Assembly: GCA_964106915.2 (NCBI GenBank)
Contig: OZ066917.1
DNA from: Podarcis gaigeae
Lineage: Eukaryota
Direction: 5' to 3' (one strand)
DNA length: 64,000 nt
The position numbers and the translations under genes are program-made. The notes under the pieces are model-generated. The model saw only the letters and a program-made list of their open reading frames with translations. It was not told the origin of the DNA and did not search any database. Each line of letters opens with the position of its first letter. Position 1 is the first letter of the stretch. This document shows, piece after piece, positions 14,799-57,968 of this stretch.

Positions 14799-14814
14799 GT
14801 GCCACCTTGTGGCC
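14799..14814 (-). promoter_or_regulatory. CTCF-like motif GGCCACAAGGTGGCAC
   Basis: Close match to the CTCF core; paralogous, one-base-weakened site at 35717-35732. Confidence 0.45.
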
Positions 14815-14846
14815 GAAATGACTTTTTTTTTTTTGCTCTACTTCAG

Positions 14847-16840: not shown

Positions 16841-16846
16841 AATAAA
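16841..16846 (+). terminator. Polyadenylation signal of septin copy 1
   Basis: AATAAA inside ctgaataaaatatgtaaacctgttt, conserved in copy 2 at 38126; second AATAAA at 16864. Confidence 0.7.
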
Positions 16847-22012: not shown

Positions 22013-22208
22013 GGGAGACTGGAATTGGGAAATCAACTTTGATTCATAGTTTGTTTAATAACAGTTTTGATTACCGTGTGTCAACACACTTTCAGCCAAA
22101 TGTACGACTTAAAGCTGAGACGTATGAGCTCCGGGAAAGCAATGTTCGATTGAAATTGACCATAATAGAGACAGTTGGATTTGGTGATCAGATAAACAAA
22201 GAAGATAG
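22013..22208 (+). CDS. Septin-10-like (copy 2) G1/G3 exon GETGIGKST...ETVGFGDQ
   Basis: ttgtag|196 bp|gttagt, paralogous to 1752-1947. Confidence 0.94.
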
Positions 22209-23963
22209 GTTAGTATCTCCTCACTTGAATAATGTCATATTAATTTGCCAAGTGACATGCCATCTAGGATCTGACATTTGTGTCATGTAGTGGTATTGAT
22301 AGGCTTATTGATTTCATTTTATTTAAATTTATTGACATAGTTAACACACCCACCCATAACCAGAGTTATTTAGAGAAATGAGGTAAACATTTCCAGATTT
22401 ATGACTTATCAGCAAGAATTTCACTTTATGTGTGCTGATCTGGAAAACAATTTCAGTTATCACTAAATTGACAGAATATTTTAGAAAAGGACTCCAGTTC
22501 TGATAACATTGTCTAGGACCCAGATACCTACTTCATTCTTACCCAAAGGCTTATGTATGCCCACTGCAACTTTGACTTTCTCCCCAACTGAGCAGCTGGA
22601 AGGAGTCTGCTGCCTGTCACATAGGAACAGCTGTTTGAAGAAAAACAAAGTGAATTGGCACGATCCAGTGATTCTGTTTATTTTATTTTAATTTTGTCTG
22701 TTGTATTTTGTTACTTTTATTTGCTTTAAATTGTATTTTTATGTCTTGTGAATTTTATTCACATTTTTGTGCATTGCCCTGGAATCTTTTGAGGAAGGGT
22801 CGTGAAGAAATACCTTAAATAAATACGGTAAATAAAGTTAAAGGAATGAAGGTCCTGTGATGTGTGGAACTGAAGCGCCATTGAAACAGTTATGGCCAAG
22901 GGCACTTGAAAGCAATTGGTTTGTGCTGGATTGTCAGTCATTCACAAATCTGCTCACCATTTCCCGTCTGGTGAAGCCCTTTCCCCTCTGGCCAGCGTGA
23001 CAAGCTGTCCCCACCAACTCAAGCTATGTGCTCCTGTATCCTCACTCTCATTTAACCTGTTCCCAGCACCATCTCTATTTCCCCCCTTCCCAGCACTTCT
23101 TTGTGCTAAGAACTGGTTGTGTGTGAACTAACTACATCCTTCCAGTGCAACCCCTTCTCTTCCACCCTGAGCTGAATATAATGGGGTTGTGTGGTGCTGC
23201 ATATTGGGCAACAATGGCAGCTTCCCTACCCATCATTGTCTAGTGCTGAGTGTCCATTTCCACAGGTCAGGAAAGCTGGAACTTGGAGCTAGGCTGAGTT
23301 CTGGGGCTTCAGCAGTGAAGAAACTCAGACAACCAACTTACACTGACGCTGAAGGTTCAAGCTGTTTCTGACTCCTCTCAGACCATGATCCAAGCAGTTG
23401 TTTCTGTGTTCTTCCCACTCCTCCCAAGTAGCCCTTGTGCAGCTAACTAAGTACTTAGGCAACGGCTCTGATGTTCTTCCCTGGCTTACTGTCTCCTCTG
23501 TTCTTGTGGCCCTGGGGGAGATGAGGGGAGGTGTGAGAGCTGGGCAGCTGGGGTCAGGACTGTTATGGACAGGCTCTGGGTCTGCCTCCTGGTGACCCAG
23601 CAACCAGTGAGAGCTGGCGAAACCAGCAGCCAATCAGGAGAGTGTGTGTGTGTGGAATTCAAGTGAGATGCTGACAGTTTAAGAGTCATATAAGGACTTT
23701 TCTGTCTAGGTGGGCAGATGGCATCTCTGACTATCTGGAGTGGGCTCAGATAGTGATTATCTGTCAGCAGGGACAGTCTGAATTGATTCTCAGAGATTGG
23801 GATTTTGCTGTCAGCGGGAGAGGGACCAACTATCAGTGTGGGCCTGGTATCTGTGCTTGACCAGTGGGAGAGCTAGACAGCTTTGACAATGATGCTTGCT
23901 AAAAGCAATTCAAATGTATATAAGCCATTCAGAGTTGGGCCATTTGTCTTCCCTTTAGAACTA

Positions 23964-24205
23964 CAGTGGTACCTCGGGTTACATACGCTTCAGGTTACAT
24001 ACCCTTCAGGTTACAGACTCCGCTAACCCAGAAATATTACCTCGGGTTAAGAACTTTGCTTCAGGGTGAGAACAGAAATTGTGCTCCGGCGGCACAGTGG
24101 CAGCGGGAGGTCCCATTAGCTAAAGTGGTGCTTCAGGTTAAGAACAGTTTCAGGTTAAGAACGGACCTCCGGAACGAATTAAGTACTTAACCCGAGGTAC
24201 CACTG
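23964..24205. mobile_element. Tc1/mariner(pogo)-type MITE, family A
   Basis: TA TSD, perfect TIR cagtggtacctcgggtta. Confidence 0.88.
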
Positions 24206-25423
24206 TAGTTAGAAAACATACTTTGCTGCATTGCAATTGATATCAACTACCTTTACCCTTTTCTTTTCTGCATTAGGAACTTTATAATATATTATTCCTT
24301 ATAAACTATTTCTGGTGTTTTCTGATAAATTGTCCAGCTGATTGGCAACAACCTTACATAACTACAATCTGCTTGATAGTTGAAAGAGCTGCAATCAGAT
24401 ATCCTGATTTGCTTAATGTCATATCTCCAGAGAGGTGACCCTAAATTAAAATCCTTCAAGACTCCCTGTCTCAAACTTGGGAGATCCACTGCCAGCCAGT
24501 GCAGGCAGCATTAAGCTAGATGGACCCATGGGTCTTACTCAGTATGTAAGGCAACTTCCTATGCTCCAGGTCAGGGTAAAGCTTGCACCCCAACACTGGA
24601 GCTGGAGAGAGAGGCGGTAGAAGCAACTGCTTGTTTCTCACTTTAAGCAATGGGAAGAGAAGAATGGGCTGTTACAGCAGTCACAGAGCTGGGAGGACAG
24701 ATTGGGGGGCGGGGAGGCAACGAGGAAGCAGCATGGAGTCCCATCTAAGCTCAGGAAGAAGTTAGGGGGTCATTTATGTGATGCTGTGTTTTAAAGGTGC
24801 TCTGCAAAACACCGAACTGTATGGAAGATCACTTGCCCTTTTGATCTTCTTCCTCTTCTTCACACCTGTCAGTGCTATCCCACTCCTCCAGTTAGTATGG
24901 GCTGGAAAGGACGGGGATGCATTGGTGAGTGAGCACTGCTAAGTGCGGAGAGGTGATGTTGATGGTTTAGATTCACAAGCATCCTGGAGAGGAGGTTGGA
25001 AGAGCAGTGCAACATCGCCCTTCTCAGTTTGGAGCTTGGCAGGGAGATAATGGGATAACAGTTGATGGCACTGAGCTTCAGAGGTGCTTGCCTCCAAAGT
25101 TTTGTGTGAGGTCAGTAAAACACCCAGTTATTTTTCGGCAGGGTTGAGGCAACTCCCGATTTGGTTACCAAGGCCAGCCAAAATGTATGGACTTCTGTGG
25201 ATGTGCCCTTGTTTTGGTTTAGGATGATAATATTCAGGTCAAGAGGCTTTGTCTTTTTATGAGCATATACTTTAGAGAATAATTTTTAAGAATTTCGCTG
25301 AATTTATACTAATGTCACTGCTGTTTTACTGTCCCTTGGCAATTTGTGTTTATCAATGTATTAGAGTTACGGTAAACTCAACCTTTGTCCTCTTACATCA
25401 AATATTTTCCCCCTTATCTGCAG

Positions 25424-25610
25424 CTATCAGCCAATAGTGGATTATGTAGATGCACAGTTTGAAGCCTACCTCCAGGAAGAGCTGAAAATTAATCGTTCCT
25501 TGTATAATTACCGTGATACTCGTATCCATGTGTGCCTCTACTTTATTTCACCCACAGGGCATTCCCTTAAAACTCTTGATTTAGTAACCATGAAAAATCT
25601 TTCTAGGAAG
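25424..25610 (+). CDS. Septin-10-like (copy 2) exon [15 protein letters not shown]...KNLSRK
   Basis: ctgcag|187 bp|gtaaga. Confidence 0.94.
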
Positions 25611-26308
25611 GTAAGATATTAAAACCAGAATTCATTCAACTTCAGTATTTTATGTCGTGGTTTGATAAGGCTCTAACTTGTGCAAGATATTCCCTGCTAA
25701 TTAAAATAAATCCTCACCTTGCTTTTAAGATCTTACAACGTTAAGTAAAACAAGCGCTACTCAGAAGGTGAGAAAAATCATTTTAAATTTTAAGTACAGA
25801 GTCTTTTGCAGATACTTAAATAATAAATCACAGTGGTTCAGCCGACTATTTAAATTTTTGACTTTTATAAAGCAGCAACGTCAGTAAGTAAGTTAAAACT
25901 CTAGTACAGTTATATAGGCAGAATTACCTTCTTATTCATTTGCCAGTCGTCACTTTAGTCTTGTCTGGTACCTATCTTCCAATGTGGCCTAGTTCTAGCT
26001 GAGGATGTAAACCAGAGGTGGGGCCCTCCAGCCAGAGGACCACATTCCCTTGTCAATAGTTTTCCAGGAGCCACATGGCAAGAGTAAAGGATGTGACTTT
26101 TAGAAGGCTGTTTTCCAACCACATAAATTTAAAGGTCTCTACGTATCTCTCTATCCAGGCAAGCAAGTGCCATAACCAGTCTCCAAATACAACTTCCGTA
26201 AAGGGTATGACGCTGGAAGGGGCTGAGGCTATCAACCTATGCCTAAGCTGTACCTCTCTTTGAGGTGTACCTTAAATTATTTTCAGGATTTTAAGGCAAC
26301 CTGGGTTT

Positions 26309-26647
26309 AGGTAAAGGGACCCCTGACCATTAGGTCCAGTCGTGGCCGACTCTGGGGTTGCGGCGCTCATCTTGCTTTATTGGCCGAGGGAACCAGTGTA
26401 CAGCTTCCGGGTCATGTGGCCAGCATGACTAAGCTGCTTCTGGCGAACCAGAGCAGCACACGGAAATGCCGTTTACCTTCCCGCCGGAGTGGTACCTATT
26501 TATCTACTTGCACTTCGTGCTTTCGAACTGCTAGGTTGGCAGGAGCAGGGACCGAGCAACGGGAGCTCACCCCGTCGCGGGGATTTGCACTGCTGACCAG
26601 CAAGCCCTAGGCTCTGTGGTTTAACCCAAAGCGCCACCCGTGTCCCT
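26309..26647 (-). mobile_element. Sauria SINE
   Basis: Reverse complement of the Sauria consensus; flanking ctgggttta duplicated. Confidence 0.9.
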
Positions 26648-27876
26648 AATCTGGGTTTAAATGGAGTTTAAATCAGTAGCTCATTTTATAAACATGTGAT
26701 TTGACAATGTTGGCCATGGACTAGGTCGCTTTCAGTCTTACCCTTTCCCCTTCACACAATCACCTCTACCCCATAATTCCACCCAACTCTTCCACTTGCA
26801 TTTCCATTCGACTATAGGTGGATAAACTTTAATGCACAGGTCCTTTTTCAGCTAAGGGCCGTTTCCCCTTCTAGGCAGCTTTCTGAGGGCCACTTAGCAA
26901 TGGTGGATGGGGCCAGAGGCAAAAGGGGATAGAGGAGCAACAGATTTTATCTTTGTAAAGTAGGTTAGTTTCCGCACACACTTGCACACCCCTCTTTCCT
27001 CCATCCAGATAATAATGAAGCATTATTGAAAGAGGTTCCCCAACCTTACTTTAAGGGCAGAAGATTGGTTGCCTTAAAAATCCTAATCAGGTATTTTGAA
27101 TGTGCGGAAGACTTAAATCTGACCTTTTTTTTATTTAGTTTGTGCTGAGTCAAGGGAAGACGTATAGAAATGTGTACAGAGTACAAAAACCTTATACTCC
27201 AAGCAGCAATATAAACAGTCACTCCTATACCTTTAGCCAAATGGCAGGCAGACAGGAAAGCTAGTTCTCTGCATGATTCATACCATATCAAGGGTTTTCA
27301 CTTGCTTACATTTGCCAATAGTTCTTCAGAAGCTCTAAAATGCTGTCAGCTCACAAGGGATATGTTTGGTTTGTAAACGAGGAAGGCAAAAGAAAAGGCA
27401 CATCCAGAAACAAGAAACGTATTTCACAGTAGCTAGCAGTACGTTTTGTTGAAGTACAAAAAGCCTACAATTGCTTGCAAGGGAATCATTGTGGAAATCG
27501 TTGCCTTTTTGTTAAGTAATTCATTATACATAAAACATTACAGTATACAAAAAGCAATACATCGATGCCCTAGTAAAACAAACAAAAAAACCACTTTGTG
27601 ATAACTGTTTTTGATGATCATGTTTTATTCTGGTAAAGTTTTCACAGTATTTCTGGTAAAATGGAAAACTGAGCTATACGGATAAATAGAAACTGCAAGT
27701 TTATTATTATTATTACTATTATTATTTTAGCAAGTTCATGGTACTGAAGAGCTATTTTGCTACTCTGTTTAAAAAGCACCTTGCTTTTTCATTGACATGG
27801 TAATTGGTGTTTAAAAAGTTCAGATTATTTGCAGATTTGGCTTGTATGAGTACAATACTTCTTATTTCTTTAATAG

Positions 27877-28038
27877 GTGAACATCATTCCCCTTATAGCC
27901 AAAGCTGATACAATTTCTAAAACTGAACTACAGCAGTTTAAGGTCAACATCATGAGTGAACTGGTCAGTAGTAGACTCCAGATATATCAGTTCCCAACAG
28001 ATGATGAGAGCATTGCTAACATTAATGCTAACATGAAT
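27877..28038 (+). CDS. Septin-10-like (copy 2) G4 exon [11 protein letters not shown]...
   Basis: taatag|162 bp|gtaagt. Confidence 0.94.
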
Positions 28039-28210
28039 GTAAGTACTTCACTACAAGTATTAGAATGTAAGTATTTTAATGGGATTTCACCTTATTTTTG
28101 ACAGGTGTGATGGTCTTTCATGTAATTAGGCTACATGTTGTATATATTGCATTTTTCATTTATTCTTAGTGTTGACAGCAATACAAATTTATTTACTTCC
28201 TGTTTTGCAG

Positions 28211-28307
28211 GCACACTTGCCATTTGCAGTAGTGGGCAGTTTGGAAGAGGTAAAAGTTGGAGACAAAACAGTAAAAGCTCGCCAGTATCCTTGGGGCGTA
28301 GTGGAAG
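28211..28307 (+). CDS. Septin-10-like (copy 2) exon [13 protein letters not shown]...YPWGVVE
   Basis: ttgcag|97 bp|gtaaag. Confidence 0.94.
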
Positions 28308-29450
28308 GTAAAGAAGAGTTTGAACTCTCACTTTTTACAGAATTAGTTTCCTAAGATAGTCAGCAGTGATAGTAACATTGCATGGTTAATTGTCTGCTTC
28401 TCAACTGATAAAGTTCACATTTTGCAGTATCTTTATAGAACTGCTTTCTTCTTTTTGAAGCCTAGTGAATCACGACATCTTTTTGTCAGATTTGTGAACC
28501 AGGCAATATTCTACGCTTTGTGATTTAAACTGGTGATCTGTAGCAGTACCATGAGTCTACTTTCCCAGAACTGTTCCTTTTTCACAGGCACATTCTGCAA
28601 CACGTCATCAACACAATAATATTGCATTAGTGATGGATTTAGACAGGACAGGACAGGACACTCCATGTATCAACCAGTCTGCTTTATTAGTTGCACAGTG
28701 ATACTTCCCCAATATTATTGTATTGTTGCCATCTGGAGGGGCACTCTTGCACTGTACATCAACAAAAGTGAAACAGCACACAGAACATTCGTGATCTAAA
28801 AAGGCACAAGATTTCAGCAGGAAATTATGGGACGCACGCTTACCAGCCACAAAGCAAAAAGGCAGCTTGTCAGCAGTCTGGATTGGCCACAGCAGCCGGA
28901 GCTTGCTAGGATTAGTTTAAGGAGAGCTGTTGCCTCAGAATTATGCTGAAGCCTTCTGAGACGTCATAAAGGCTGGCCCACACCCTCTTATTAGCCCTAC
29001 CCACTCTGAGTAACTGATCTATCTTTTAAAGGACTATTCTGCAAATTATGGCGTTTATGGTGTGGGGGTGGTGAGGGATGAATTGGAGGGGTGTTGTCTG
29101 AGCTGGAGAAGTCCAGTGAGGGCATATAATCTGTCCTGGATGGTGAGGAATTGGGATACCTCTTCTGCCTTCCAGTACCTCCCATCTGCCTCTGAGCTGG
29201 CAGATGCATTTGGAACGGGAATTTCCTGATCCCATCTTTGCAACTGCTACCCATCAGAAAGCCTCTCCTTGTGGTTCAGGGGACACTTGCAAAATGTATG
29301 AGATGGATGGGAAAGACTTCCGCTGCTCAATACCCCCCCTGCAATCCCTCACCCCGCAATCCCGGCGTGAAAGGGCTTTTGGGGGGTGTTTCCTGCATCC
29401 TGTGGTAAATTCCAATAGGATAGAGCTGATATCTTATTTTATTTCATTAG

Positions 29451-29607
29451 TGGAGAATGAGAACCACTGCGATTTCGTGAAACTCCGGGAAATGATGATT
29501 TGTACAAATATGGAAGACTTGATAGAACAAACTTGTTCTGTTCATTATGAACTGTACCGGCAGTATAAACTGGAAGAGATGGGCTTCCGAGACACTGATC
29601 AAATCAG
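29451..29607 (+). CDS. Septin-10-like (copy 2) exon VENENHCDF...GFRDTDQI (12 bp shorter than copy 1)
   Basis: cattag|157 bp|gtaaga; in-frame loss of ENKP. Confidence 0.93.
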
Positions 29608-30333
29608 GTAAGAGAGTGAGCCTTTCCTATGTTTTTAATAGTGAAACCAATTCCCAACATGGCTTTTGTAATTACTTCTCTGAAGGTATCTTGAATCTTA
29701 AGTGTGTAATTAAAACTGTTTGCAGACCCCTTAGCCAATTTATGGGGGTGCAGGGGGGGGGGGGAAATGGGCTATTGCACCGACTTCCACTAGTGGGGGC
29801 CCTTTGTTGAATCTGACCCCATAGCTTAGCTCCAAGTAGCATGGCAACAGCACGATTGGGGGAGGAGCGAAGTGGCTGCAGTTTTCCTTTTGGATCCCCA
29901 CGTGCTTGTTCTTTCTGACTTAAGTCTAAGCCATGTTTTGGCTTTGTGTTATATGAGTACAAGGCTTCTGAAAGCTTTATAAGTGTACTCCACATGCGTA
30001 GTTGTTTGTAAGTGCTAAATACAAATCTTAGGTGGTATTCAGTTAAGACTTACTCAGAATAAGGCCCATTAAAATTAATGAACAGGACTAACGATTGAAA
30101 TGTACCCTGAGTAAGTCTTAGCTAAATATTACCCATCATTTTAAAAATTAAATACATAATTGTTTCAGTGTTATATTTCCGTAAGAAAAAAAGCAAATTC
30201 CTTTAACTTTTAGAAACTTGGAATGGTATCAGTTTCTTTCTGTGAGCCAGGATAATATAAAATTGGGTTCCTTAGACAGAACTGTGGAAGCACACTACAA
30301 CTTGATAAATCTGTATCTTTGTTTTGTTTTTAG

Positions 30334-30369
30334 GATTCCAGATTCCAAAAAGACAACTCATAGAGAAAG
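30334..30369 (+). CDS. Candidate 36-nt in-frame micro-exon of copy 2, (R)IPDSKKTTHRE(S)
   Basis: tctttgttttgtttttag|36 bp ending AAG|gtatgt; phase 2-2 and stop-free in the septin frame. Confidence 0.5.
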
Positions 30370-30705
30370 GTATGTTGCCTTATAGCGTAGAATGAGGGAA
30401 TTAAAGTTTTTTAAATCCTGTCTCTCTCTCTGTGTGTGTGTTTTAGAAAGAGACAGCTTGGTCTTACAGGAACCAATAGTGACATGATCCCAGTACTGAT
30501 TTGGAACTATTATTGAATTCCCTCAAGTGCAACTCAGAATGTCTCCAGCTGTGTACTAATTCTTCAGCTTACAAATATGGGTAGGGGACCATAGACCCCG
30601 GAGAGAGGCATTTCCTGTCAGATTAGACACTATCTAGATCAGGTGGACAAATAGCCTAACTTAGTATAAGGAGTTGCCTATGTTCTTAAATACCAATTAA
30701 ATTGG

Positions 30706-30707
30706 TT

Positions 30708-30767
<60 letters not shown>

Positions 30768-30786
30768 TTTTTCTTTCTTTCTTTCT
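30706..30786. repeat. (TTTC)n microsatellite
   Basis: Direct observation. Confidence 0.95.
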
Positions 30787-32875
30787 CATTGATGTTCTAA
30801 ACAGATATGTGAGATGCGTGCTGGCCTCAAAACAGACTTTATTTACAGTAGTCGCTGCAGTACTAACATTTAACTTCTGCAATAGAACATGATCTGTGAC
30901 TAGAATAAATAATAGTTCTGTAAAAACAGGGAAGTTGACAATTAACTTGCCTTAAATGTGTTGGTAAGATCAGAATAAAAAAAGGGGACACAATCTCACC
31001 TTGGACATAACCTTTTTGAAAAGATGCTGCTGTTCTTCTCCCTGTTGAACAGTAAGGAGTTGAAGACTTACCTTCCAATGTGAGCTGGTAAATTGTTTTC
31101 TTATCCCCCCTGCGAGATGAACTTACATTTGGCTCTACCTCCACTCATCTAAGGCACATCTATGCCACTCTGAATCCAGCACTGGTCTTTGGTCTCCCCC
31201 CCCCCCCTTTTCCAATACTTCTTGCAGCCTACCTTTACACATGCCAGAAGCATGACATTAACCTGGATGGATTCATTGGTGGTTAGGGGTGTAGCCTTAT
31301 AATTGCCATAGCAGCCAACCAATAAACATCTTGCATCGCAAGTTGTTGCTAGAAACGGGATGAGCCAGCTGTTCCTCCCAAAGTTGCTTCTCTAGGAAAA
31401 GTTATATGCCTGACTAAAAAGGAATGGGTACCGATTTGCAAAGGGGTAGCTTCATCTGCTTATATCCAGTTAGAAACTGAACTTGAAGAAGCTGTAACTG
31501 GTTTTGTTATCTCAGTTTAAAAGCAGGGAAGAAGCACATGCAGCAGTTAGACTTTGTGCAATAAGATGATATCACCTAACAGCAAACCTAGTTAGGGTGG
31601 AAAACGGGGTGGAAAATCTGTGGTCCTCCAGATGTTGCTTTGGGCTGTGGCTGATGGGAGCTGGACACCCAACAACATCTGGAGGGTGGCAGGTCTCCTG
31701 CCCTTGGTGTAAAAAGTTACAACAATGACATCTTAACACCTGGGTTCCTTTAAAAAGAATTAGAATGCTTTCTAAGCGAAAGGCACCTTTACTCCTTAAC
31801 AGATGCCAAGAGTGAGATGGTTGGAAGACCTCTGGCTATTGACATTGTATGTATTACAGTGAGATTGGAATCGGCTTTCAACTGTAAGATCAGCAAGTTT
31901 TACTCTTTGTCTGGTTCAGAGTAGTCTCTTTACTGGAAAGTGACTTTGTAGAGAGAATATCCAGTTGTCAGTGTGCCAAAAAGGAAGGACACATCCAGCA
32001 TTCTGAGAGGAGGCTTAAAAAACTGATAGAAGAGATTCTAGACTGGCATGTAAAGAGGAGAAGAATGAGAAAGCCAGGCAAACAATGAGAAAATGACATC
32101 TTCTTTTGCCGTCAAACATAATCACTACAGATTTTGAAATGTGGCAATAATTCCAGTGGGTACATTAGTTGATGTAGATAGATAGATAGATCTGTTTGGT
32201 GGTCTGCAAATGCACAGTGATAAAAGAACTGAATTTTCTCTGCTGAACAGGAAAGTGTGGAATAACACTTGCTTGACTTAATGTTGTCTAATCTCACAAA
32301 GAAATCAGAATAAATGCACATTAAATACCCTATGACTATGTTGTCTAATCTCTTCATAAGCAAATCAGGCTGAATGCTTATTAAACAAGTTATCTGGAAG
32401 TGACCAAATTTTTCTCAAATTAAGTTCTATTTCAATTGATTAGGTATACCCCCAAGTTAGATGCATTTAGGATCAAAAATAAAAGCCCAGGGCCACCTAT
32501 GCTTTGTCCACTTCACCATGATTAATTTGTTGCCCTGCATTCTATTCATAGCATCACTGCTTGTCCCGTCCTAGGAGCTTTTAGAACCAGTTTATAAATT
32601 TAACAAAAGGAAACACTGTGAGTGTGGTGAGACAGCAGACCACACCTGTTCTCATGCCCCCCCCTTAATTGCAAGGTTTGCAAGATGAACCAGGTGTAAC
32701 TCTCCAGTGCACACCTTCTTGAGCAAAACATCTCCTTGAACTTTTAATCTCCCTGTGAACTTTCACAGTCTCTCATGCACAGGAAAGCTGGTCAAATGTG
32801 GTTGGGTTTTGTAAATAAAATGGGTGAATGCGGCCAGCTCTGATTGAAGGCTATTTTACATTTTATGATCCTCAG

Positions 32876-33008
32876 TCTGCAGGAGACTTATGAAGCTAAG
32901 CGGCTTGAATTCCTTAACAGTTTACGGCAAAAAGAAGAAGAGATGAGGCAAAGGTTTGTTCGGAGGGTCAAAGAGAAAGAAGTACAGTTGAAAGAAGCTG
33001 AGCGAGAA
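32876..33008 (+). CDS. Septin-10-like (copy 2) coiled-coil exon [12 protein letters not shown]...KEAERE
   Basis: cctcag|133 bp|gtaagc. Confidence 0.94.
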
Positions 33009-33935
33009 GTAAGCCCATCTCTCTTACAGTTCTTGATCTGGTTGTAGTGGTAGCTTGAAGACATTATGTGGAGCAGCAGAATAAGATGGCTAGAGTCTAG
33101 TGAAGAATGCACTGGAGAGAAAGGTGTGCATTGTACAGCCCTTCTTTGGAGATCATGGCTGGAATTCCATCATGAGTCAGGACCAGGGAGACTTGCAACT
33201 AAATATTCAGCTGTGTCCCAAATATGTCTCCTCCCCTGGTTTGTTTGTGTGTGTCCACATGCGCATGGTACCTCTCTCTTCTTCCCTTCCCAGTGTCTCG
33301 CAATGAGTGGCAGAGCCCTTCCTCCTCTTCCTTGTTCACACAGCTGGAGCTGATTGGCTAGGCACATTCAGCATTAAGGAGAAGGTTATCAGATTCTGAT
33401 TTGGTTGTTGATGTGATTTATTTATAGGAGGTTAGGATGGTCTCTACTGCAGTGTTGGTGTGCTGGGTCCATCCATTTCTTTTTCTGCTCCTATTTGCTA
33501 CGGTTGAGAACTGGAATGCCACACATTGCATAATGCAAATGAGATAACTGCCATACTAAAAAGACGATGGCCAGAGTTGAGATGTGTGTGAAGTAGAAGC
33601 CAGAGGCAGATGGAAGCCAGAGAGATAGAGCCATGTCTGCTTTCTGCTGGAATCCAAGGCTGTGGCTATGGAAGGAGCAAAACCCTTTTGGGGTACTAAT
33701 GTTGTGAGCTCCCCAGGTTATATTTATGTGTAAATAAACCATGTATCATAAATACACCACAGTCTTGGCTGTCCCTCATTCTGAGGAAACAGCCTTTCTC
33801 AACCTGTGGGTCCCCAGATGTTGTTGAACTACAACTCCCATAGCCCCTTGCTAGCAAGGCCAGAGCTCAGGGATGATGGGAGCTGTAGTCCAACAACATC
33901 TGGAGACCCACAGGTTGAGAACCGCTGGCCTAGAA

Positions 33936-34188
33936 CATGGGTAGGGAAACTAAGGCCCAGGGGCTGGATCTGGCCCAATCACCTTCTAAATCCGGCCCAT
34001 GGACAGTCCAGGAATCAGTGTGTTTTTACATGAGTAGAATGTGTGTTTTTATTTAAAATGCATCTCTGGGTTATTTGTGGGGCATCAGGAATTCATTCAT
34101 CCCCCCGCAAAAAAAATATAGCTCGCCCCCCCCCAAGGTCTGAGGGGCAGTGGACCGGCCCCCTGCTGAAAACGTTTGCTGACCCCTG
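33936..34188. mobile_element. Non-autonomous hAT element
   Basis: Perfect 8-bp TSD gcctagaa; inverted related copy at 36905-37138. Confidence 0.8.
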
Positions 34189-35762
34189 GCCTAGAATATC
34201 ACACTGACGGGGGTGGTGACCCCCATATTGAGGGGGGTTGGTGTCACGTTACCCGTCCTGCCTCTACCTGGCATGCCAGCCCTCGCCTCTTGGCAGTGGT
34301 GAGCGAGGAGGGTGAAAATCACCCTCCGCACCTCTTGCCACCCTGGCGGGCCAGCGCTTGCCCAATGGCAGCAGGGAACGCAGAGAGTGAAAATCACCCT
34401 CTGTGCCTTCTACCCCCACTCAGTAGGCCAGTGCTCAGCCGTCTGCATGGAGAATGCTGAGGGTGAAAATCATTCTCTATGCTGGCTTAGCTGTGTACAA
34501 GAATCATTGTGCAGTGCTGCCCAGCTGAGGAGAGAAGCATAAATGCTGCCACAACCCTTCTGCTTCTCTTCGTCTCCCAGGTCAGACCTGACCCAGGCAG
34601 AGGCGGAGTGAGCGGAGCACAGGCTGTGCACCCAGGGGCGGGGCTAGCCACCCATGGGGGCGGGGCAAGTGTCCCAGGGAGGCACCGCGAGTGGCCCCTC
34701 AGGGATGACACCCACTGCACCCCTTCCTCTGCCAGTGGGGCCCAGAAGCAGAGCTGCAGCTTGGTGCAAAGGAACTGTACAGCCCTGTACAGGAGAGGGG
34801 GGTGGGGGAGGGGATGGTGGGGGAGAAATATTGGGTACGGGACTCAGCCCCCTGCCCAGAAATATTGAGGGAGCTGAATCTCCATCCACCCCTATTGTTG
34901 GTGCCCCTGCGCACTGCTCAGACATTGGGGTGGTGTGCAGCGATATTAGATGGTGAAATAGGCATCTTATCTGTGGGGGACTCCATTTTCCTATCCAGCT
35001 GTTCAGCACACAAGGATCATCAAGTTCATGTGGCAACTTGCTGTTGATTTAGATCAGAGTTCCAGGAAACAATAGAAACAGCCTTTCATAATTGCATAAT
35101 GATAGGGGTGCCAACTTGAATAAAATATTGGGATATCCCAGGTAAGCCCTGCCCTGCATAATTGATCCTGAAACACACACACTATTTGAATGGCAATGTC
35201 AATCAACTGGGGTGTGTGGCAGCTCTCAAATATTTTATGGTGGGGTGGGGGTCGAAGGGACTTCAGCCCCTAAGAGCTGGCTCCTATGCCTAATGACATC
35301 ACAAGTTGAACTAACATAATTTACTGAAATCAGTCTCCTTTGATTTAAAAGTAAATTGTTGACCAGAAGCTTACAGTATAACTTATAGTATCATATGCAT
35401 ATTGAAAGATGGGCTAATTAAGGCAGTAACCCGTGTTGTTCAATTGGGAGATGTTTGATCCGTTCTTCATTTAGCAAGAAATGGGAAGTTAACTATGGGA
35501 TGCTCTGAAAGAATGATACCCCCGTTGAAAAGCTTTTATAAGTAAAACTGATGTCCACATTTGTCATTATAAAGAAATCAGTTCCAAGTTACTATAAGAA
35601 AAGGTTTTAGCGCGCTTGTGTCAATAAGCGAACTATGAAAATAGTAAGTGAAAATAAGGAAATCAGTCTCTTTTTTTGACCTTGTGATTACTCAAGATGG
35701 TATATTAAGTGCTAGGCTACCACCTTGTGGCAGAAGTGATACCTTTTTGTGCTTGACTTTAG

Positions 35763-35953
35763 CTACAGCTGGAGTTTGAACATTTAAAACAGCTTGATCA
35801 AGAAGAGAGAATGAAATTGGAGGAGAAAAGAAGACTCCTGGAAGAAGAAATTATTGCATTCAATGACAGAAAAGCTGCCGCAGAAATAATCCAAGGGAGG
35901 CCACTGCCCCCTACGCCCACTGTTGGGTATAAAAAAGATAAGGATCGTAAAAA
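35763..35953 (+). CDS. Septin-10-like (copy 2) exon [11 protein letters not shown]...[18 protein letters not shown]
   Basis: ctttag|191 bp|gtaagt, open frame; not in the ORF track on +. Confidence 0.93.
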
Positions 35954-36157
35954 GTAAGTAATCAATTCCATAAAATTTTAGGATTTGGTTTTTAGGACAG
36001 GGTACACTGTCCAGTTCAGATAAATATTTTAAACAGTATAAATGAATCAGGTACCAAATATGGGGGGGGGGGGAGTTTTGTATTAACTTGTTCAAAACTC
36101 TTACTGATACTATCAGACACTTTTACGAGAACTCTTCTTTTTAATATTTGTCCTAAG

Positions 36158-36284
36158 GGATCAAGGTTTTCGGCTTGAGCTCCTGTGCTTTGATGTCAGA
36201 GATCAGGAATTTGTGAATATACAGGAGGAGAGAGAGAAAGAGAGATTAGAAAGGGAACGAGCCCACAGGGAGCACCATGAATAG
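36158..36284 (+). CDS. Septin-10-like (copy 2) terminal coding exon (K)DQGFRLELLCFDVRDQEFVNIQEEREKERLERERAHREHHE*
   Basis: cctaag acceptor, paralogous to 15239. Confidence 0.7.
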
Positions 36285-36904
36285 AATTTGGAAGCAGTTT
36301 GAAAACGTTATATGGTTAAGGTATGTTATGTTTAAAAGTCATAGAAAACAGATCCATATGGCCACAGTGTGGTTTTTTTCATTCCTAGGAATATTCTGAA
36401 ATTCACAAAAGTCTTTGTGGTTTTGTGGCGATGACAGAAGTTATTACAGAATTATAAACAACCTCAAACAAACATTGTGGAGAAGGGGGTTCTTGTTGCG
36501 CTAACTGTTCTGCTCTTATTCTTAAGGAATAACTATGCTAAGCAATTCATTTTAATGCTAGAAATCTGCTTTTAAATGATGACAAGGTCATTAAATGACC
36601 AGAAATATCATCCTCTCAGTAGTGACTGTTGGGCAACATAGAACAATTTCCACAAACTTGCACAGCAGAAATCTGATTGCACTATGTGACTTTCTTTTCT
36701 CCTACCTCCAACCTCTTGCACGCCCCTATTTTTTTTTTCAGAGGAGTGACCCCCCCCTGCTGAGAATAGTGTATATAAAAGGACATTTCTTTTAAGTTGC
36801 ACTAAACTGAGCAGATTTTGGACTGCAGGGGGACAGAAGGAGAAACTCAATGGAATGGACAGACACCAATTCACACTGCATTTATTCTCACCTGTGAATT
36901 AATT

Positions 36905-37138
36905 CAGGGGTCAGGAACCTTTTTCAGCTGTGGGCCAGTCCACCATCCCTCAGACCATGTGGTGGGCTGGACTATATTTTGGAAAAAGAAAAAAAAAGAA
37001 CGAATTCCTATGCCCCACAAATAACCCAGAGATGCATTTTAAATAAGAGCACACATTCTACTCACGTAAAAACACGCTGATTCCCAGACCATCCGCGGGC
37101 CGGATTGAGAACCCCGGGCCTTAGGTTGCCTACCCCTG
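36905..37138. mobile_element. Non-autonomous hAT element in the copy-2 3'UTR
   Basis: cagggg...cccctg termini, TSD aattaatt/atttaatt. Confidence 0.75.
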
Positions 37139-38125
37139 ATTTAATTCAGCCTTGAAATACATTCATGGAAATTACTAAATATTCAGTTATCAGGGCACAT
37201 TCCGAAGGGATGTGATGCAAACACTTTGCTGAAACTAAGCAGGTTTGAGTTTGATCAGTGACTGGATTGGAATCTGTCAGGGAAACCCATGTCCACCACC
37301 AACGAAAGAAAGGTAGGAAGAATAGCCACATATTAAATAAATACGATTTAGCAACTACTTTTAATACTTCAGAAGCCTGTGTAAATATTTTAGTCATTTG
37401 TTGCTATCACATCAGGGAGAAGGCTAAGCTGTAAGCCTTCGTGTGCCGTTGAGTTCTGGATGAAAGGACCGTTAAACCAAGGGACCTTCATTGTAGTCTG
37501 AAGTGATTCAGTCAAAGAAAGTCTGTACCATGGTGATATTTCTCTACCTTTGAGTCAGTTCAAGTCCTCTCCATTTGATATTCATCAAAATAAATATAAA
37601 TACATGGAAGACAAAAGCTTTAATACTTTATGAATAGTCTTTGCTTTCTGTGGAGAAAAGGTATACCTAATATAACTCCTTCTGTTTCAGCGTTGGCTTT
37701 ATGTGAAAGAAGAATAAATACAAGAATAAATTATTCACAGTTCTCTATGAAGAAACTTGGGTCACCTTCCCCCTTTTTAATGCAAGTTAACTTGAAAACT
37801 GACTCCTGTTTAACAAAGGGAAAAGTATATTAAAATGTATAATTAGTATCACATAGTGTACTGTAGGTTGTTGTATTAAAATATATAAAATGACAGTTCT
37901 TTTAAGCTATTGATGTGCATTTAAACTATATACCTGTGGCCAAGCTGTACTCACTTTAAGTGCTGTACCTAAGATCACTGTGCCACAAAAGAATTTTTAT
38001 TTCTGTTATGAATACTCTTAGCATAGAAATGATTATATATTGCAACTGTTTTAAAGAACTGGTGCTTCTTGAATGTGTTAACTGCATATCAATGAATATC
38101 CCCATTTGAAACATTTATTGAACTG

Positions 38126-38131
38126 AATAAA
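38126..38131 (+). terminator. Polyadenylation signal of septin copy 2
   Basis: AATAAA in a context conserved with 16841. Confidence 0.7.
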
Positions 38132-38552
38132 ATATGTAAACCTGTTTCAGAAAACATTTTCTTTTCTGAAAATGTTTTTTTTATAAATGCACATGCTAGC
38201 TCTGTGATAAGCTTAAATTAAAATGGACCATGATTGCCTTTGCAGTGGCAGTATTCATGCAAACATATGGTTTACTTGAAAATAGATATTGAGAAGTATT
38301 GAGAAGGGAATCTGGTGTTCCAAGGAAAGTCAAAACCCCACTGCACTAGGGCAAGCCCCCTTGTACGAGGTTAGGCCCAGGAGTTCTTTGCAAACAGATC
38401 CCTGCAGACAATCCATAAATCTGCAGAGTGACATTCTAAATATGAATGTGCCCTTTAAAAAGTGCCTCGAGAAAGTTCAAATGGTGAGTGGTGCATATCT
38501 TTAAAGCAATGGCAAGAGTTCTTAATGACCTTCCTTGCTAAGTTGCTGAAAT

Positions 38553-38906
38553 GGGGATGCGGGTGGCCCTGTGGGTTAACCCACAAAGCCTAGGGCTTGC
38601 CGATGAGAAGGTTGGTGGTTCGAATCCCCGTGACGGGGTGAGCTCCTGTTGCTCAGTCCCTGCTCCTGCCAACCTAACAGTTTGAAAGCACGTCAAAGTG
38701 CAAGTAGATAAATAGGTACCGCTCCAGCGGGAAGGTAAATGGTGTTTCCGTGCGCTGCTCTGGTTCACCAGAAGCGGCTTAGTCATGCTGGCCACATGAC
38801 CTGGAAGCTGTACACCGGCTTCCTCGGCCAATAAAGTGAGATGAGCGCCGCAAGCCCAGAATCGGCCACGACTGGACCTAATGGTCAGGGGTCCCTTTAC
38901 CTTTAC
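38553..38906 (+). mobile_element. Sauria SINE, full length
   Basis: ggggatgcgggtggccctgtgggtta head, (accttt)n tail. Confidence 0.92.
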
Positions 38907-39800
38907 ACTGCAACTGGGAGCAGCACAAATTGTTTTGTCAAAGCAGGTTTTTGATATGTGATGGCTGGTTATAGATGAGGAAGGGTGTGATAACTTAAGG
39001 CAGATGGCAGAGAGAGTTATCACTCAGACTGACATTTCAGAAACACATTTTTATGTCCTGCACCATGTCACTGAGACTTTGGTTAGTGAAATAATCCCAG
39101 AGCCTTCCATTAGACTTCACAGTAAAGGGAGACCTGAACTTACAATACAGTTGGAACAAAATGAACCTATGATGTGCTTGCTTTTCTTTCTGCTGTGTGG
39201 CGCTTAAGGAATCCAGGAAAAATAATAACTGAAAAGTGGGCAGTATTTTCAGTTCAGCTATTTTTAGCTGAAAGAAAACTCCCTGGTCAGGCCTACCCTT
39301 CCCAAATGCAGAAATATTTGAAGAAGAAAAGAGAGCGCAGAGCTGTCAGTTTCAAGTCAACTGCCTTTTCAAGGTTATACTTTTAAGACGCTTTTACTGT
39401 AGTGATTTTTTTTAAAAAAGAGATCACAATATTTGTAGATGAAAGTCCAGCAATAGCCTGGCAGGAAGGGAGCTGGCCTACAAGCTTTGTTATATAAAAA
39501 GCAAAGGCATTTTTTTTAAAAAAAATCAAAATTCTTATCAGGGCATTACCCTTGGTAGGACAACCAACGTATCACAAAATAGTGTGCAAGTCTCCATATA
39601 TATATATATATATATATATATGCTTTCGTAGATATATATAGTTGCAAACCAAAAACAACTGTAATTTGTAGTGGAAAAAGGGAACCTTATTAATGGTTGA
39701 GAAAACACAATCACCATCCGAAACCTGCCTAACCAGCAGGTTGGTAGGACCAACCCTTGGTAGGACAACCAACGTATCACAAAATAGTGTGCAAGTCTCC

Positions 39801-39831
<31 letters not shown>

Positions 39832-39914
39832 CTTTCGTAGATTTTCACGGGTACAGGAATGCAGGTTTTGGTGTCCTCGGGTGTCTTCCCGTGTAAAAGT
39901 TGGGGTGTCTAGGC

Positions 39915-39948
39915 GACGTTTCGACGAGGTCTCACTCGTCATCTTCAG
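39915..39948 (-). ncRNA. Minimal hammerhead ribozyme motif (left arm)
   Basis: Reverse complement reads CTGAAGA-T-GACGAG-tgagac-CTCGTC-GAAA-CGTC. Confidence 0.6.
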
Positions 39949-40206
39949 GCTGGTGCTTTCGGCTTCTTGTTACTGGAACAGAGCGGGATCTCAATGTTTG
40001 AGTTCCTATAAATACTGTAGAGGGGGTGTGGTGTCTAGCCTCCAATGTTCTGGGCAGAGAGGAAGTTCAGAGGCACACTAGCCTGGGAACTTCCTCTCTG
40101 CCCAGAACATTGGAGGCTAGACACCACACCCCCTCTACAGTATTTATAGGAACTCAAACATTGAGATCCCGCTCTGTTCCAGTAACAAGAAGCCGAAAGC
40201 ACCAGC

Positions 40207-40240
40207 CTGAAGATGACGAGTGAGACCTCGTCGAAACGTC
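40207..40240 (+). ncRNA. Minimal hammerhead ribozyme motif (right arm)
   Basis: CUGANGA box, 6-bp helix II (GACGAG/CTCGTC), GAAA box, palindromic ACGU, GUC cleavage triplet. Confidence 0.6.
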
Positions 40241-40291
40241 GCCTAGACACCCCAACTTTTACACGGGAAGACACCCGAGGACACCAAAACC

Positions 40292-40322
<31 letters not shown>

Positions 40323-40559
40323 GCTTTCGTATATATATATAGTTGCAAACCAAAAACAACTGTAATTTGTAGTGGAAAAAGGGAACCTTATTAATGGTTG
40401 AGAAAACACAATCACCATCCGAAACCTGCCTAACCAGCAATTCATATACGTAAGACAAGCGAAGTAAACGTGATGAATTAGACACCATACCAAGCCCATA
40501 ATGTAAAGCGGGGGGGGGGGGGGGAGGAGATGGGAGGCAAGAAAAAGAAAGAATACTGC

Positions 40560-40870
40560 AAGCAACCAAATATATGAAAGTACAACGAGGCAGATCCTGT
40601 AAAGGGAAAGTAAAAGATGATAACATTGACAGAATTAAGCATCCCAAATATTCTCGTAGTGTTAAGGTAGGTGCTGTTATGTTCACTGTTAACGTAAGCA
40701 ATATAGGACTACTATGTTGAATTAAATATCTGTTTTTGAAAAGGCAAGGAAAACTCTCAGTTTCTGAGTCAGTTTCTCCATGAATGCTATATACCACACC
40801 TTGTGATACCAATAAACACAAATCTTTCCAATGTTTGACCATAGTCAACCCAGCTGCCATCAATTAAGTG
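40560..40870 (-). mobile_element. Degenerate L1-type LINE 3' fragment
   Basis: LIDGSW / AAGLTMVKHWKD-like translation similar to the fragment at 1-480. Confidence 0.35.
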
Positions 40871-43800
40871 GTTAATTAGGTCCTGATCTTTGAGGTCTGC
40901 ACCTGTGTTAAGTGCAAGCTTTTGAGTTCCCCAGGGCTCTTCATCTGGGTAAATGGTGAACAGAGCAAGCAAGCAAGCGAGGGAGGAGAGGAAGAAAGTT
41001 TGCTGAATTGAAGCCACAGAATCTTCATCATTTAGGAGACCTAAGATGGAAACAACAAAAAGGTAAGAGACATTCAAATAACAATGTTATTTGGTAGGCA
41101 GGTTGCACCCAAGCCTTCTAGGAAGAAGCAGCATATAATGTTTGATGCCCTGTATTTGAAAATAAAAATTCAGCTGCTAGCCAGATTCACCTCCACCTTT
41201 AGGCAAAACTCACAAGTTCCTCAGTACAGTAGTGGAAAATAGGAATAAAGAGAAGCTAGGCAGCTTATATATTAACAAAGCAGGAATTAACTATATTTCC
41301 TGGCCAGTTGTTTTTTTGTTAGTGGTCACTCCCAACTGCATTGTTCCTGGGCACATCCTGTTCATTCTGCAACATTTCATTGCTTTGCCCTGCAAATATT
41401 AGTCAGACACATTAATGCCTTCAGTACACCAGTCTCAGTTAATCTAGCATTTCCATGTTCCATATCTAGTAATACAAAAATTCAAAGTGGTTAAGGGATT
41501 TGCTATAATTTCTTTTGGTAGACTTCTGATGTCAAAACTCACATTGTTAAGCTAACTATGCATAGCATTCACCAGCAGATGCTGCTCAACAGCCACTGTT
41601 TCATCGCTTCCTATTGCACAATCATTGCAAACGAGCAATGAAATGTCCTAGATATTTTTCTTCATTTTAATTAACAGTTTTATGTAATCTACATCCTAAC
41701 CCTTTGTGTATTATTCATACATTTAAATGCTAAAACCAGTAGCTTCCTCTAGGCTTCGAGATGTATTTATGGATTGATTCGGTGCTTAAATCCAAAACAC
41801 CTATGAATAAAAGATTGTTCTCTTGTCTCATGATATGGATGATCAATCAGGCTGGCAGGCAGGGCAAAAGCGTGCTGGATCCGGATGAATTTGGCCATTC
41901 AGCAGGAGTTCACTTGTAAAGAGCCTTGATAGGCCTGCCTGAGAAGACAGTTGCAGAGCTTAGATGTGGCAGTTTAGAAGGTCATATTGCATATTCACAC
42001 TAAACACACTAGTGTGAGGCAATTGTGGAGCAATTAGCCTCATATAAACAACATGCTTAAGTCTCCTTAATGCATGAATAGGTTAATACCATAGAGTAAG
42101 CTGTCCGGCCAGGCTCAGCCTATGTCACTTCCCCTCACTTTGGAAGGAAATGGGCACACTGGAGAGTCAGTGTGGAGCAGTGGTTAAGAGCGGTAGACTC
42201 AGGATATCAAATACAAACCTCCTGCTGCTGCTGCTTATTTTTCAGACAAGAAAGGAGTCTGAAGTTAGGGTTTTACCATTTTGTAACCAAGCAACGTTGA
42301 ATTGCCTGTGTATTGTTTCGGACGGCTGTATGGAAAAACACATGAATCTAACCTTTAACGAGGTTTGTAAGTAACCCATTTTACGTATAACTTACCAAAC
42401 GTATCATCTACCTGTGTGCTAGGGAAGTGGGATACTTTGGAGTTCAGTGAAAAAGCCACATTTTAAAAGGTTTGCAGTCTTTATTTCCACGCTTTTATTT
42501 GCTCCATGTTTTGCTGCGGTTCTCTCACCAGAGAATACTTGCCTCAGACTTGGGTCTTGGCTTCCAGGGTTTCCAACAATAAGCACCCTGACACACACCC
42601 CCCCCCCCACTAAAAAGGGACTGTGGCTTCCTTCTTTAGTAAATGGGCCCCTCAGGAAGTTCTCAGCATCTGGTAGGTTCCTGTGGGAATAAGTATCCCT
42701 TAGGATATGCTGGTCCTAAGCCATGAGGAGCATTAAAAGCCAAAACCAAAACGTTCAACTGTGCTCAGGAGATGGGCCTAAAGTCAGTGCCGTGCTATTA
42801 AAAGGTGGCTTCACTGACTGTAATCTAAAATAATGGTGTTTAGCTGCTCAGAACACTAAATCCGTTGCTGAAAACACTAACCCCTATTCCCTCATGACCT
42901 TCTCTGCTGTTGGGCAGGTCTGCCCAATCACTGGACAGAGTGAGACAAATTCTTTTGTAGGTATGTGAATAGATGCTAGGAGAAAGGTTACATTTATTAG
43001 ATATTATCCTTCTTCCCTTACATTTGTGAGTTCAGCAGAGTGCATCCCTTTGCAGCTTAAAAGATAGGCAAGTTTTAGCCTTTTGGTTGAAGTCATCCAG
43101 GATGCTTTAAGGCGGACTGGATTCTCCCAGTATTCCCCCCTTTAAACAATAATCAAACACACAGTCTTGTAAAAAGTAGCAATAACATTTACTCACTCAG
43201 AGTTTCTGTTGCGGAATAACAGATACAGCAGCTTTGTTCAGGCAGGCTTAAAATGGCAGTTCAGTTACAAGGACGTACTTTAGTCTACCTTAAGATGGGC
43301 TCTGAGCCGTAGGTCAGATTTAGCAGTGGTTCTCACCTTTTTTTGCTTGATGATGAAGTTGGAAGAGAAAGAGGAGAGGTTGTGCCCAGGTAGGTAAGGA
43401 CAATATATGTCGCTACACCCTCGCCTTGACAGGGAACAGTGGGAGAATATTTCAGAGGGTTCTCTCTAGCAAACACACAGAAAAACTCTGTGAGCTTCAG
43501 CTCCTATCCTGTCCCTATCTAGCACCATTGGTTTGGCTGTATTGTAAATACAGTATCCCACATCCTTAAGTGCCAGATTCCAGGGGAGAAGAGAAAAGGC
43601 AGGGGAAAGAGATGGTTGAAGGCAGTGTTGGGGGACAGAGCTGTGCCGTCAGGTGTGGTGGAAGATGCTGTCCTGTTGCCAGTTCTCAATTTTTCACGTA
43701 GAAAGGGAGGAGGGCATCAGCCGGTGATTCACCTCAGGTAGCAAAATGTTTTGAACTGGCCCTGCTGTTGAGGGCCTGCTGTGATGAAAAGTGACGTAAA

Positions 43801-43977
43801 TGAAAGCAAGGAAGGTCAGCTCAAATCAGCCATCCGATTCTCGCATCTGACAGTATAAACTGGAAGCTCCAAATCTCAGGCATTTAAGTCGGGAGCCGTT
43901 CTGTATCCCTCATGATGAGGTAATGGAGGGTCCCAGCAAGCAATTTCTTTTCTGCTCCATTTTGGAATAGATACTGG

Positions 43978-43990
43978 GTTGCTAGGCAAC
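43978..43990. promoter_or_regulatory. RFX X-box GTTGCTAGGCAAC (3' flank of copy 2)
   Basis: Identical to 18273-18285 within a duplicated ~300-bp block. Confidence 0.55.
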
Positions 43991-44646
43991 ATTTTCCATG
44001 TAGCTTGCTCCTCATCAAGCGAACCAGATAAAAATCAAAACAATTTTTTTAACCTTCTCCTGGGTCAAGTTATTTTGGCAATGTGACAAGATAAATTAAG
44101 TTAGGGAAATCGTCCTCAAAGGGAGACTGCCTCAAGTTTAACCTGCCTAGGTCTCATCCAATTTATTTATAATCTGTCAATAAAATTCTTACTGCCTGAT
44201 AATCTGTTGAAAGAAATGTTCAACAAAGGGGGGGGGGGGATTGAGACTAAGAGTGTAGAAAGGAAGATTGCTTGTTCTATTATATTCAAATAGATTATTG
44301 AATATTACTTTATTTCATATAAGCCATTCTATTTTAAAGTTATGTTTTATTAGGACTTTCTGTATTGGATCAGATTATTATAAGGTGTGTGTTTGTTGTG
44401 TATTTTGTTGCCGTAAACTGCTCTGTGTATAGTAATATAGAAGGGTCATTTTACAAATTGAAATGAAGTGAAGATTGGCAATTAAATTTATAGGAAAGCA
44501 AGCCCCGCCCCCCCCCCTTTTTAAAGGGGTCAATAACACTTTAACAGAAGGAGAATCTGTGCTGGCAAAAAATATCCCTCTCTACAAATACTTACTTTGT
44601 AGGATCCCTGTATTGAAGTGGAGAGGTGTGTGAGTCTGGAAACTTA

Positions 44647-57604: not shown

Positions 57605-57968
57605 AGGGACGCAGGTGGTGCTGTGGGTTAAAGCCTTAGTGCCTAGGACTTGCCGATCGAAAGGTCGGCGGTTCGAATCCGTGCGGCGGGGTGCGCTCCC
57701 GCTGCTCGGTCCCAGCGCCTGCCAACCTAGCAGTTCGAAAGCACCTCCGGGTGCAAGTAGATAAATAGGGACCGCTTACCAGCGGGAAGGTAAACGGCGT
57801 TTCCGTGTGCGGCTCTGGCTCGCCAGATGCAGCTTTGTCACGCTGGCCACGTGACCCGGAAGTGTCTCCGGACAGCGCTGGCCCCTGGCCTCTTAAGTGA
57901 GATGGGCGCACAACCCCAGAGTCTGTCAAGACTGGCCTGTACGGGCAGGGGTACCTTTACCTTTACCT
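57605..57968 (+). mobile_element. Sauria SINE, full length with 15-bp TSD
   Basis: TSD taagagaggctgtca at 57590-57604 and 57969-57983; (accttt)n tail; CpG-rich (young). Confidence 0.93.

Follow-up and report, generated by a model that had tools for sequence, protein, structure and literature searches.

Poseidon of Anolis carolinensis (PAc) is among the closest described systems: according to the available text of PMC11167929 it cuts and extends both target strands, has two start sites bounding a tail, is predicted to form a dimer and uses uncut RNA. The inverted pLTR layout of EN+ Penelope-like elements (PLEs), its one-sided tail and the opposed minimal hammerheads have likewise been published (PMC8557442, PMC3846280, PMC2377424, PMC4209133). 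In the parts of these sources available, dual motifs 100-700 bp apart on opposite strands are already reported, minimal hammerheads are described as having low activity even as dimers, and a D. virilis Penelope variant is described with a 2-bp helix I (PMC4209133). The available texts of PMC8557442 and PMC11167929 call the origin of PLE inverted repeats and of the tail open.

Here we analyse one such insertion from the window (the whole 64,000-nucleotide stretch of Podarcis gaigeae DNA) together with related loci across the genome. New here are the counts of start-site pairing, the concordance between arms, the counts of joint microhomology and the finding that cDNA ends are not concentrated at the ribozyme cut site; in the freely accessible literature searched, we found no paper counting long/short pairing or testing arm concordance.

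Layout of the palindrome and its source element

The two 210-bp arms are exact reverse complements (210/210 bp) separated by an 18-nt spacer, as the preliminary description had reported, and the mirror symmetry does not extend outward beyond them (Table 1). The spacer mini-hairpin it had proposed is present as a 4-bp mini-stem (40071-40074/40081-40084), across which a repeat search carries the arms. Numbering the A of the ORF ATG as +1, the arms correspond to element positions -126..+112 and -142..+84 and are 100% identical to an intact copy elsewhere in the genome (L082). Within the right arm lie the final ORF codons, whose stop TGA (40221-40223) falls in loop II, and, from the ATG at 40213, the opening 28 codons of the following unit. 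The preliminary description understated the insertion, which also includes a left-arm tail of 28-30 nt (its start read as 39829 or 39831), (AT)14 at both ends, a flank duplication and two stubs. No short target-site duplication was readable, (AT)n on both flanks masking any.

Table 1. Coordinates of the insertion, its flanks and the nearest gene signal (window positions)
Feature	Position	Strand	Description
Likely poly(A) signal of upstream septin copy	38126..38131	+	AATAAA; 1.73 kb upstream of the palindrome
Flank tandem duplication unit	39548..39752	+	205 bp; flanks A and B plus 14-nt filler
Stub 1	39622..39633	-	First 12 nt of the long-start-site cDNA, after (AT)13 at 39596-39621
(AT)14 target repeat, left	39801..39828	.	
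Left-arm tail	39829..39858	-	+85..+112 and TT (+113/+114), leading into (AT)n which agrees with +115..+118; long start site
Left arm	39859..40068	-	5'-truncated PLE end, element -126..+84; 100% identical to L082
Hammerhead core, mirror copy	39915..39948	-	Motif of the left arm
Head-to-head joint	40069..40086	+	2 extra nt, then right-arm element -142..-127 including the element's own 4-bp mini-stem
Right arm	40087..40296	+	Ends at +82/+84 (short start site), without tail
Hammerhead core, minimal type I	40207..40240	+	C3-A9, extra U, 6-bp stem II, GAAA, C-G, U16.1, C17; predicted cut after 40240
(AT)14 target repeat, right	40295..40322	.	First 2 nt common to the arm
Stub 2	40323..40331	-	First 9 nt of the long-start-site cDNA, then back to (TA)n

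We are close to certain, as to both family and layout, that a young Penelope/Poseidon-type retroelement, truncated at its 5' end and inserted head to head into (AT)n, forms the palindrome, in agreement with the Penelope-like origin and inverted-repeat insertion suggested beforehand. The intact copy encodes a 991-aa ORF with an RVT_1 match at residues 358-537 (E 6.9e-16) and a GIY-YIG match at 705-758 (E 7e-4), the latter scoring 20.2 against a Pfam curated cut-off of 22.6. Read by eye, its translation has DKG (PADKGN), a CCHH motif in the endonuclease (GIYEIPCKVC...FQH...GH) and one linker Cys, and is without the extra CX2-5CxxC linker finger found in Neptune and Nematis; by the criteria given in the available text of PMC8557442, this motif set points to Penelope/Poseidon rather than Neptune/Nematis. 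A PDB search with the protein returned distant RTs only. L082 carries a pLTR partial tandem (-194..+111) followed by a full 2,965-bp unit. Its ORF (L082:3607-6582) runs from hammerhead A9 (window 40213) into loop II of the following unit and occupies the entire unit; the stop sits 8 nt past the next unit's ATG, so that start, stop and ribozyme overlap.

The 34-nt hammerhead core has 6,685 exact matches in the genome (3,367 and 3,318 by strand) compared to 0 for a reversed control, and the motif is thus not a product of chance. Tail-end matches number 4,318, which puts the family at about 4,300 recent truncated insertions. Copies diverge from L082 by 0.13% over 71.6 kb aligned, which makes the burst a recent one; the same divergence, together with identical arms and identical duplicated flanks, supports the earlier proposal that this insertion is very recent.

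Several further features of the element were observed. A TATA-like motif lies at -72..-65 (window 40141-40148). The 5' ends of copies are denser from -42 downstream (0.6 per nt versus 0.1 per nt upstream) and peak at -6..+1, where they possibly represent run-off at an RNA start. One long arm near 88.49 Mb on C3 (L153:2585-4732) contains a satellite of the element's own making, in which a 58-bp piece (+32..+91) recurs head to tail about 37 times, with a short microhomology where the units meet. Another locus (L148:3866-4696) has repeated pieces over -6..~+170, near the extent of the PAc minimal RNA (first 172 nt of the ORF).

The flanks of the palindrome are themselves duplicated: flank A occurs identically at 39548-39595 and 39753-39800, flank B at 39641-39738 and 40342-40439, and the 14-nt filler between the duplicated units (39739-39752) resembles nearby sequence. 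One stub lies beside each flank B copy. The duplication joint (39752 to 39548) was found in contigs of run X1, which is possibly the source sample and hence not independent, and in run X4, from a related species, a contig spans flank B without that joint. Run X3 lacks coverage of flank B and is uninformative about polymorphism. The sequence (AT)n-GCTTTCG-(TA)n, corresponding to the first 7-9 nt of the long-start cDNA, accounts for 65 of 71 matches to the pattern with the middle four bases left free, and 7 of the 12 examined loci with such a stub have no larger element within 1.5 kb. These 65 genome places (e.g. L094-L098) are insertions of about 9 nt of element tail inside (AT)n. Inverted copies of host flank occur at 2 of 54 loci (L052, L064) and a direct flank copy at none of the 54. 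At L052 the inverted copy is 171 bp and surrounds the insertion, and at L064:1974-2040 a 66-bp host palindrome lies at the 5' joint. We suggest that the stubs represent cDNAs whose synthesis was aborted and that the flank duplication is a by-product of repair; both may have arisen together with the palindrome, or before it.

Paired start sites, joints and shared variants

Insertions elsewhere in the genome were examined in two sets: the 54 loci (C1, 0-17 Mb) to which the first 100 among the 6,685 core matches belong, taken in full, and 32 loci found by tail pattern among the first 100 of the 4,318 tail matches after removal of known ones, with the L005 cluster left out. By core arrangement, the 54 loci comprise 31 simple head-to-head pairs ('-+'), 16 single copies, 7 compound arrangements and no tail-to-tail order ('+-'). 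Element 3' ends fall into two classes, +82/+84 (short) and +112..+118 (long), and 167 of 179 primed ends adjoin (AT)4 or more. A long end is paired with a short end in 69 of 76 head-to-head pairs overall, giving the one-sided tail of 28-34 nt also seen in the window, and the remaining seven are long-long or short-short. Set 1 shows this pairing in 39/42 pairs by motif typing and 42/47 by BLAST typing, and set 2 in 27/29 (p=9e-4 against a null of 2/3, each pair having a long end by design). Two long arms (L063, L069) are tail-only and stop at +83/+84. The idea that (AT)n is added to the long start site in a telomerase-like manner was rejected for now, since 44 short and 56 long ends showed no difference in tract length (p=0.50).

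We consider it likely that reverse transcription was primed from both ends of a single DNA cut, beginning at the long site (+113/+118) for one end and at the short site (+84) for the other. A narrower reading, slightly less likely than not, is that one RNA was copied twice by a dimeric RT from two start sites about 30 nt apart, once per end of a double-strand cut in (AT)n, giving both the inverted repeat and the one-sided tail. As reconstructed from the end products of insertion, the GIY-YIG domain would cut both strands in (TA)n, each 3' end would anneal to the element RNA through 1-4 A/U bases at the two start sites, and a probably dimeric RT would copy one uncut RNA twice, with the leading copy from +84 and the trailing copy from +113. 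Both cDNAs would terminate prematurely (in the window at -126 and -142, where the element has its mini-stem), and host end-joining of the polymerase-theta-like kind would join the cDNA 3' ends and fill in. Double copying of one RNA would explain the start-site coupling, the variants shared between arms, the lead of the short arm and the tail-only arms stopping at +83/+84. Against this explanation, the available text of PMC11167929 reports that PAc in vitro shows no start-site difference between strands and primes without homology.

The joints between arms are scattered over the whole 2,965-bp unit with 0-5 nt of microhomology; 18 of 27 direct joints have at least 2 nt, compared to 13% in simulation, and 19 of 46 joints contain 1-51 extra nt, some copied from nearby element sequence. 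The lengths of paired arms correlate (rho 0.54), with 27 of 76 pairs falling within 30 nt of each other versus 6.0 by permutation; the other 49 differ by more than 30 nt, often by hundreds. The short arm extends further 5' in 47 of 69 pairs and the tail arm in 22, with the two sets differing in this respect (short arm further in 24/42 versus 23/27 and tail arm in 18/42 versus 4/27, p=0.018). A stop hot spot near -126..-142 was not supported, only 4 of 179 arm ends lying within -140..-121; loci L004 and L005 had been selected with a query of that length.

A marker variant allowed the arms to be compared. G at -431 is present in 235 of 3,333 copies (7%), and it occupies both arms in 34 of 35 informative pairs, compared to 3.7% expected if arms were independent. 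By coordinates, 66 of the first 100 G matches form 33 '-+' pairs, 11 of which were viewed as sequence (9 long plus short, 2 untyped). The 34 single matches comprise one further G/G pair (L145), one G/A pair (L061), 19 loci whose partner arm falls short of the site and 13 without an adjacent inverted partner. Seven locus-private variants at five loci are also found on both arms. Discordant arms occur at L061 (-431) and L002 (-127), and at both L139 and L150 a short arm with G precedes, in the same direction, a long arm with A. The concordance and the near-equal arm lengths are accounted for as well by DNA fold-back, by a single dominant source locus in each cell or by subsequent conversion between arms as by one RNA.

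The main rival to the one-RNA reading is fold-back with strand transfer, in which both ends are primed but one cDNA grows long, snaps back, is copied as DNA and transfers to the short cDNA, leaving a second arm that is mostly a DNA copy of the first. This would account for the -431 concordance, the private variants on both arms, the excess of near-symmetric arms and the inverted flank copies of L052 and L064; joint microhomology is predicted equally by copying with two RTs. By itself, however, it leaves the differing start sites of the 69 pairs unexplained, it is at odds with the discordant arms of L061 and L002, and the 49 pairs differing by more than 30 nt would need large loops. We regard it as somewhat unlikely.

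Considerably less probable is self-priming on an antisense template at the pLTR palindrome (Arkhipova et al. 2013, PMC3846280, from the text available), or plain fold-back of a tail-primed cDNA. The window's joint does lie at the element's own mini-stem, and arms do share variants, but the joints elsewhere show no fixed palindromes, being spread across the unit with little microhomology, and the two 3' end classes match RT start sites mapped on the PAc sense RNA. Plain fold-back further needs the tail arm to be longer in all pairs, a pattern seen in less than a third of them. The pairing and variant counts, together with the few ends at the cut site (see below), disfavour plain self-priming, and the predictions made here are testable in the published PAc assay.

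Hammerhead motifs in the arms

Each arm contains one hammerhead motif, as the preliminary description had claimed, of the form CTGAAGA-T-stem II (40215-40220/40227-40232)-GAAA-CG-TC, with the proposed GUC at 40238-40240; the 64-kb window contains no others. The core has the features listed for minimal type I hammerheads in the available text of PMC4209133 (C3-U4-G5-A6-N7-G8-A9, G12-A13-A14-A15.1, U16.1-H17, G10.1-C11.1, an extra base after A9 and a palindromic 15.2-16.2), in support of the earlier reading as a minimal motif lacking helix III. Helix I has only 2 bp rather than the 4-5 bp of that list, as had been cautioned, and no better helix I partner was found nearby in the element unit. Compared by eye to the PAc RNA, a single homologue, stem II shows 3 double changes, 1 single change and 2 unchanged pairs, and both helix I pairs are changed on both sides with pairing kept.

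An Rfam scan of 36000-44000 yielded 19 matches at E up to 1, none of them to a hammerhead family; the matches were miRNA precursors only, under the gathering score, of the kind that any long hairpin gives. Motifs without helix III may fall outside the Rfam hammerhead models. RNA folding of the monomer and of a cofolded pair recovered stem II and not the hammerhead fold, and folding of the pLTR-ORF junction was no better than shuffles (z -0.24). A search for diverged hammerhead families in the genome found none, returning one variant copy and one chance match.

The two motifs lie on opposite strands and no transcript has both in sense, which excludes a cis dimer at this locus. Either transcript makes the antisense arm first, so that the ribozyme would be paired as it emerges. 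Judged from the sequence, the ribozymes here are probably passengers and their activity is unlikely, each transcript pairing its motif with a full antisense copy.

Ribozyme cleavage as the setter of cDNA ends was rejected, with 2 of 179 arm ends within +26..+33, around the predicted cut site; the first 54 loci were picked for an intact core and are biased against such ends, and the same 17 Mb yielded only 4 more tail-bearing loci, none ending at the cut site. Immediately beyond the core, at -6..+1, there are fifteen arm ends (p=1e-4 relative to adjacent positions, in a test chosen post hoc). The available text of PMC11167929 reports that the PAc motif cuts only with its protein and that uncut RNA is the main template, and the scarcity of arm ends at the cut site agrees with this use of uncut RNA.

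Host context and comparison with described systems

Two septin genes lie in tandem on the + strand of the window (1680-16887 and 21947-38172), about 20 kb apart and 66-88% alike in exons and UTR, with four exons of the second copy matching Pfam Septin. The poly(A) signal placed about 1.7 kb upstream by the preliminary description is there (Table 1). No empty insertion site was obtained from the paralogous septin copy. The window also holds four copies of a 330-360 bp repeat, 77-87% alike, which resembles a squamate SINE (4716-5045, 26309-26646, 38554-38906, 57606-57966), and MITE-like palindromic repeats of about 140 bp with 20-nt spacers, unrelated to the PLE (569-714, 16054-16195, 33790-33927).

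Polymerase II often transcribes past poly(A) sites, and the palindrome could in principle serve as a working host regulatory hairpin, in which read-through from the septin copy would supply dsRNA for dicing or editing, with an effect on the gene. Its arms are perfect and lie downstream of the AATAAA on the gene's strand, but it lies past the probable poly(A) site, was inserted very recently and has thousands of counterparts, and flank B is covered without the duplication joint in the related species of run X4; we consider such a function very improbable. Taken alone, this insertion is unremarkable among its thousands of relatives, and nothing points to a host function; the family as a whole makes a useful test bed for how PLEs form inverted repeats and the tail.

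A fold-back assembly artefact is extremely improbable: although assembly is difficult for perfect palindromes flanked by (AT)n tracts and no read was seen across the centre, the one-sided tail, the non-mirrored spacer made of element sequence, the recurrence of the long-plus-short rule with differing joints and the nearby duplication joint in contigs of X1 (maybe the source sample) all argue against it. A non-autonomous, MITE-like or retrozyme-like palindromic unit moving whole, for which the similar arm lengths of L004 speak, is hardly credible given that joints and arm lengths vary at every locus examined, L004 and L005 included, and that the locus has no tandem monomers.

The element is scattering thousands of nearly perfect inverted repeats through the genome's microsatellites, along with minor flank rearrangements and interruptions of 9 nt. 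If the one-RNA reading is true, the roughly 4,300 near-identical insertions and the marker variant would constitute a genome-wide record of that step, down to the 9-nt insertions.

The element shares the features of EN+ PLEs, namely an ORF with RT and C-terminal GIY-YIG, a pLTR partial tandem, an inverted truncated copy with tail and an AT-rich target. In L1 twin priming, both cut ends prime cDNA on one RNA and the products are joined by microhomology. The arms of L1 cover different parts of the RNA and give an inversion, whereas here the starts lie 29-34 nt apart and give an inverted repeat. The inverted pLTRs described in the available texts of PMC8557442 and PMC3846280 are alike in having a 5'-truncated head-to-head copy, a 30-40 bp tail at one end, microsatellite or AT-rich targets and microhomology at joints; there the tail is attributed to resolution by the endonuclease and the palindromes are explained by self-priming, and the window's copies are both tiny and have no readable short target-site duplication. 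The minimal hammerheads of metazoan PLEs (PMC4209133, available text) likewise lack helix III and have a palindromic 15.2-16.2, an extra base after A9 and a long helix II, but usually a helix I of 4-5 bp, whereas the Podarcis motif has 2 bp as in the D. virilis variant and its copies are almost invariant.

PAc, as described in the available text of PMC11167929, is alike in its single RT and GIY-YIG ORF beginning from hammerhead stem II, the same core with the extra nucleotide, an AT-rich target and two ends bounding the tail. That text contains no report of long-plus-short pairing or of variants common to both arms, though its figures S1-S2 may bear on pairing. The stem II and helix I sequences differ between the two elements with pairing kept, and the Podarcis element targets (AT)n nearly always, with a 1-4 nt match to its RNA. 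Aligned by eye, PAc codons 34-46 (ESLRQHIEHLYGE) correspond to codons 33-45 of the Podarcis element (ENLRKQISYLYGE), which puts the PAc start region at +111-118 at the long end of the Podarcis insertions.
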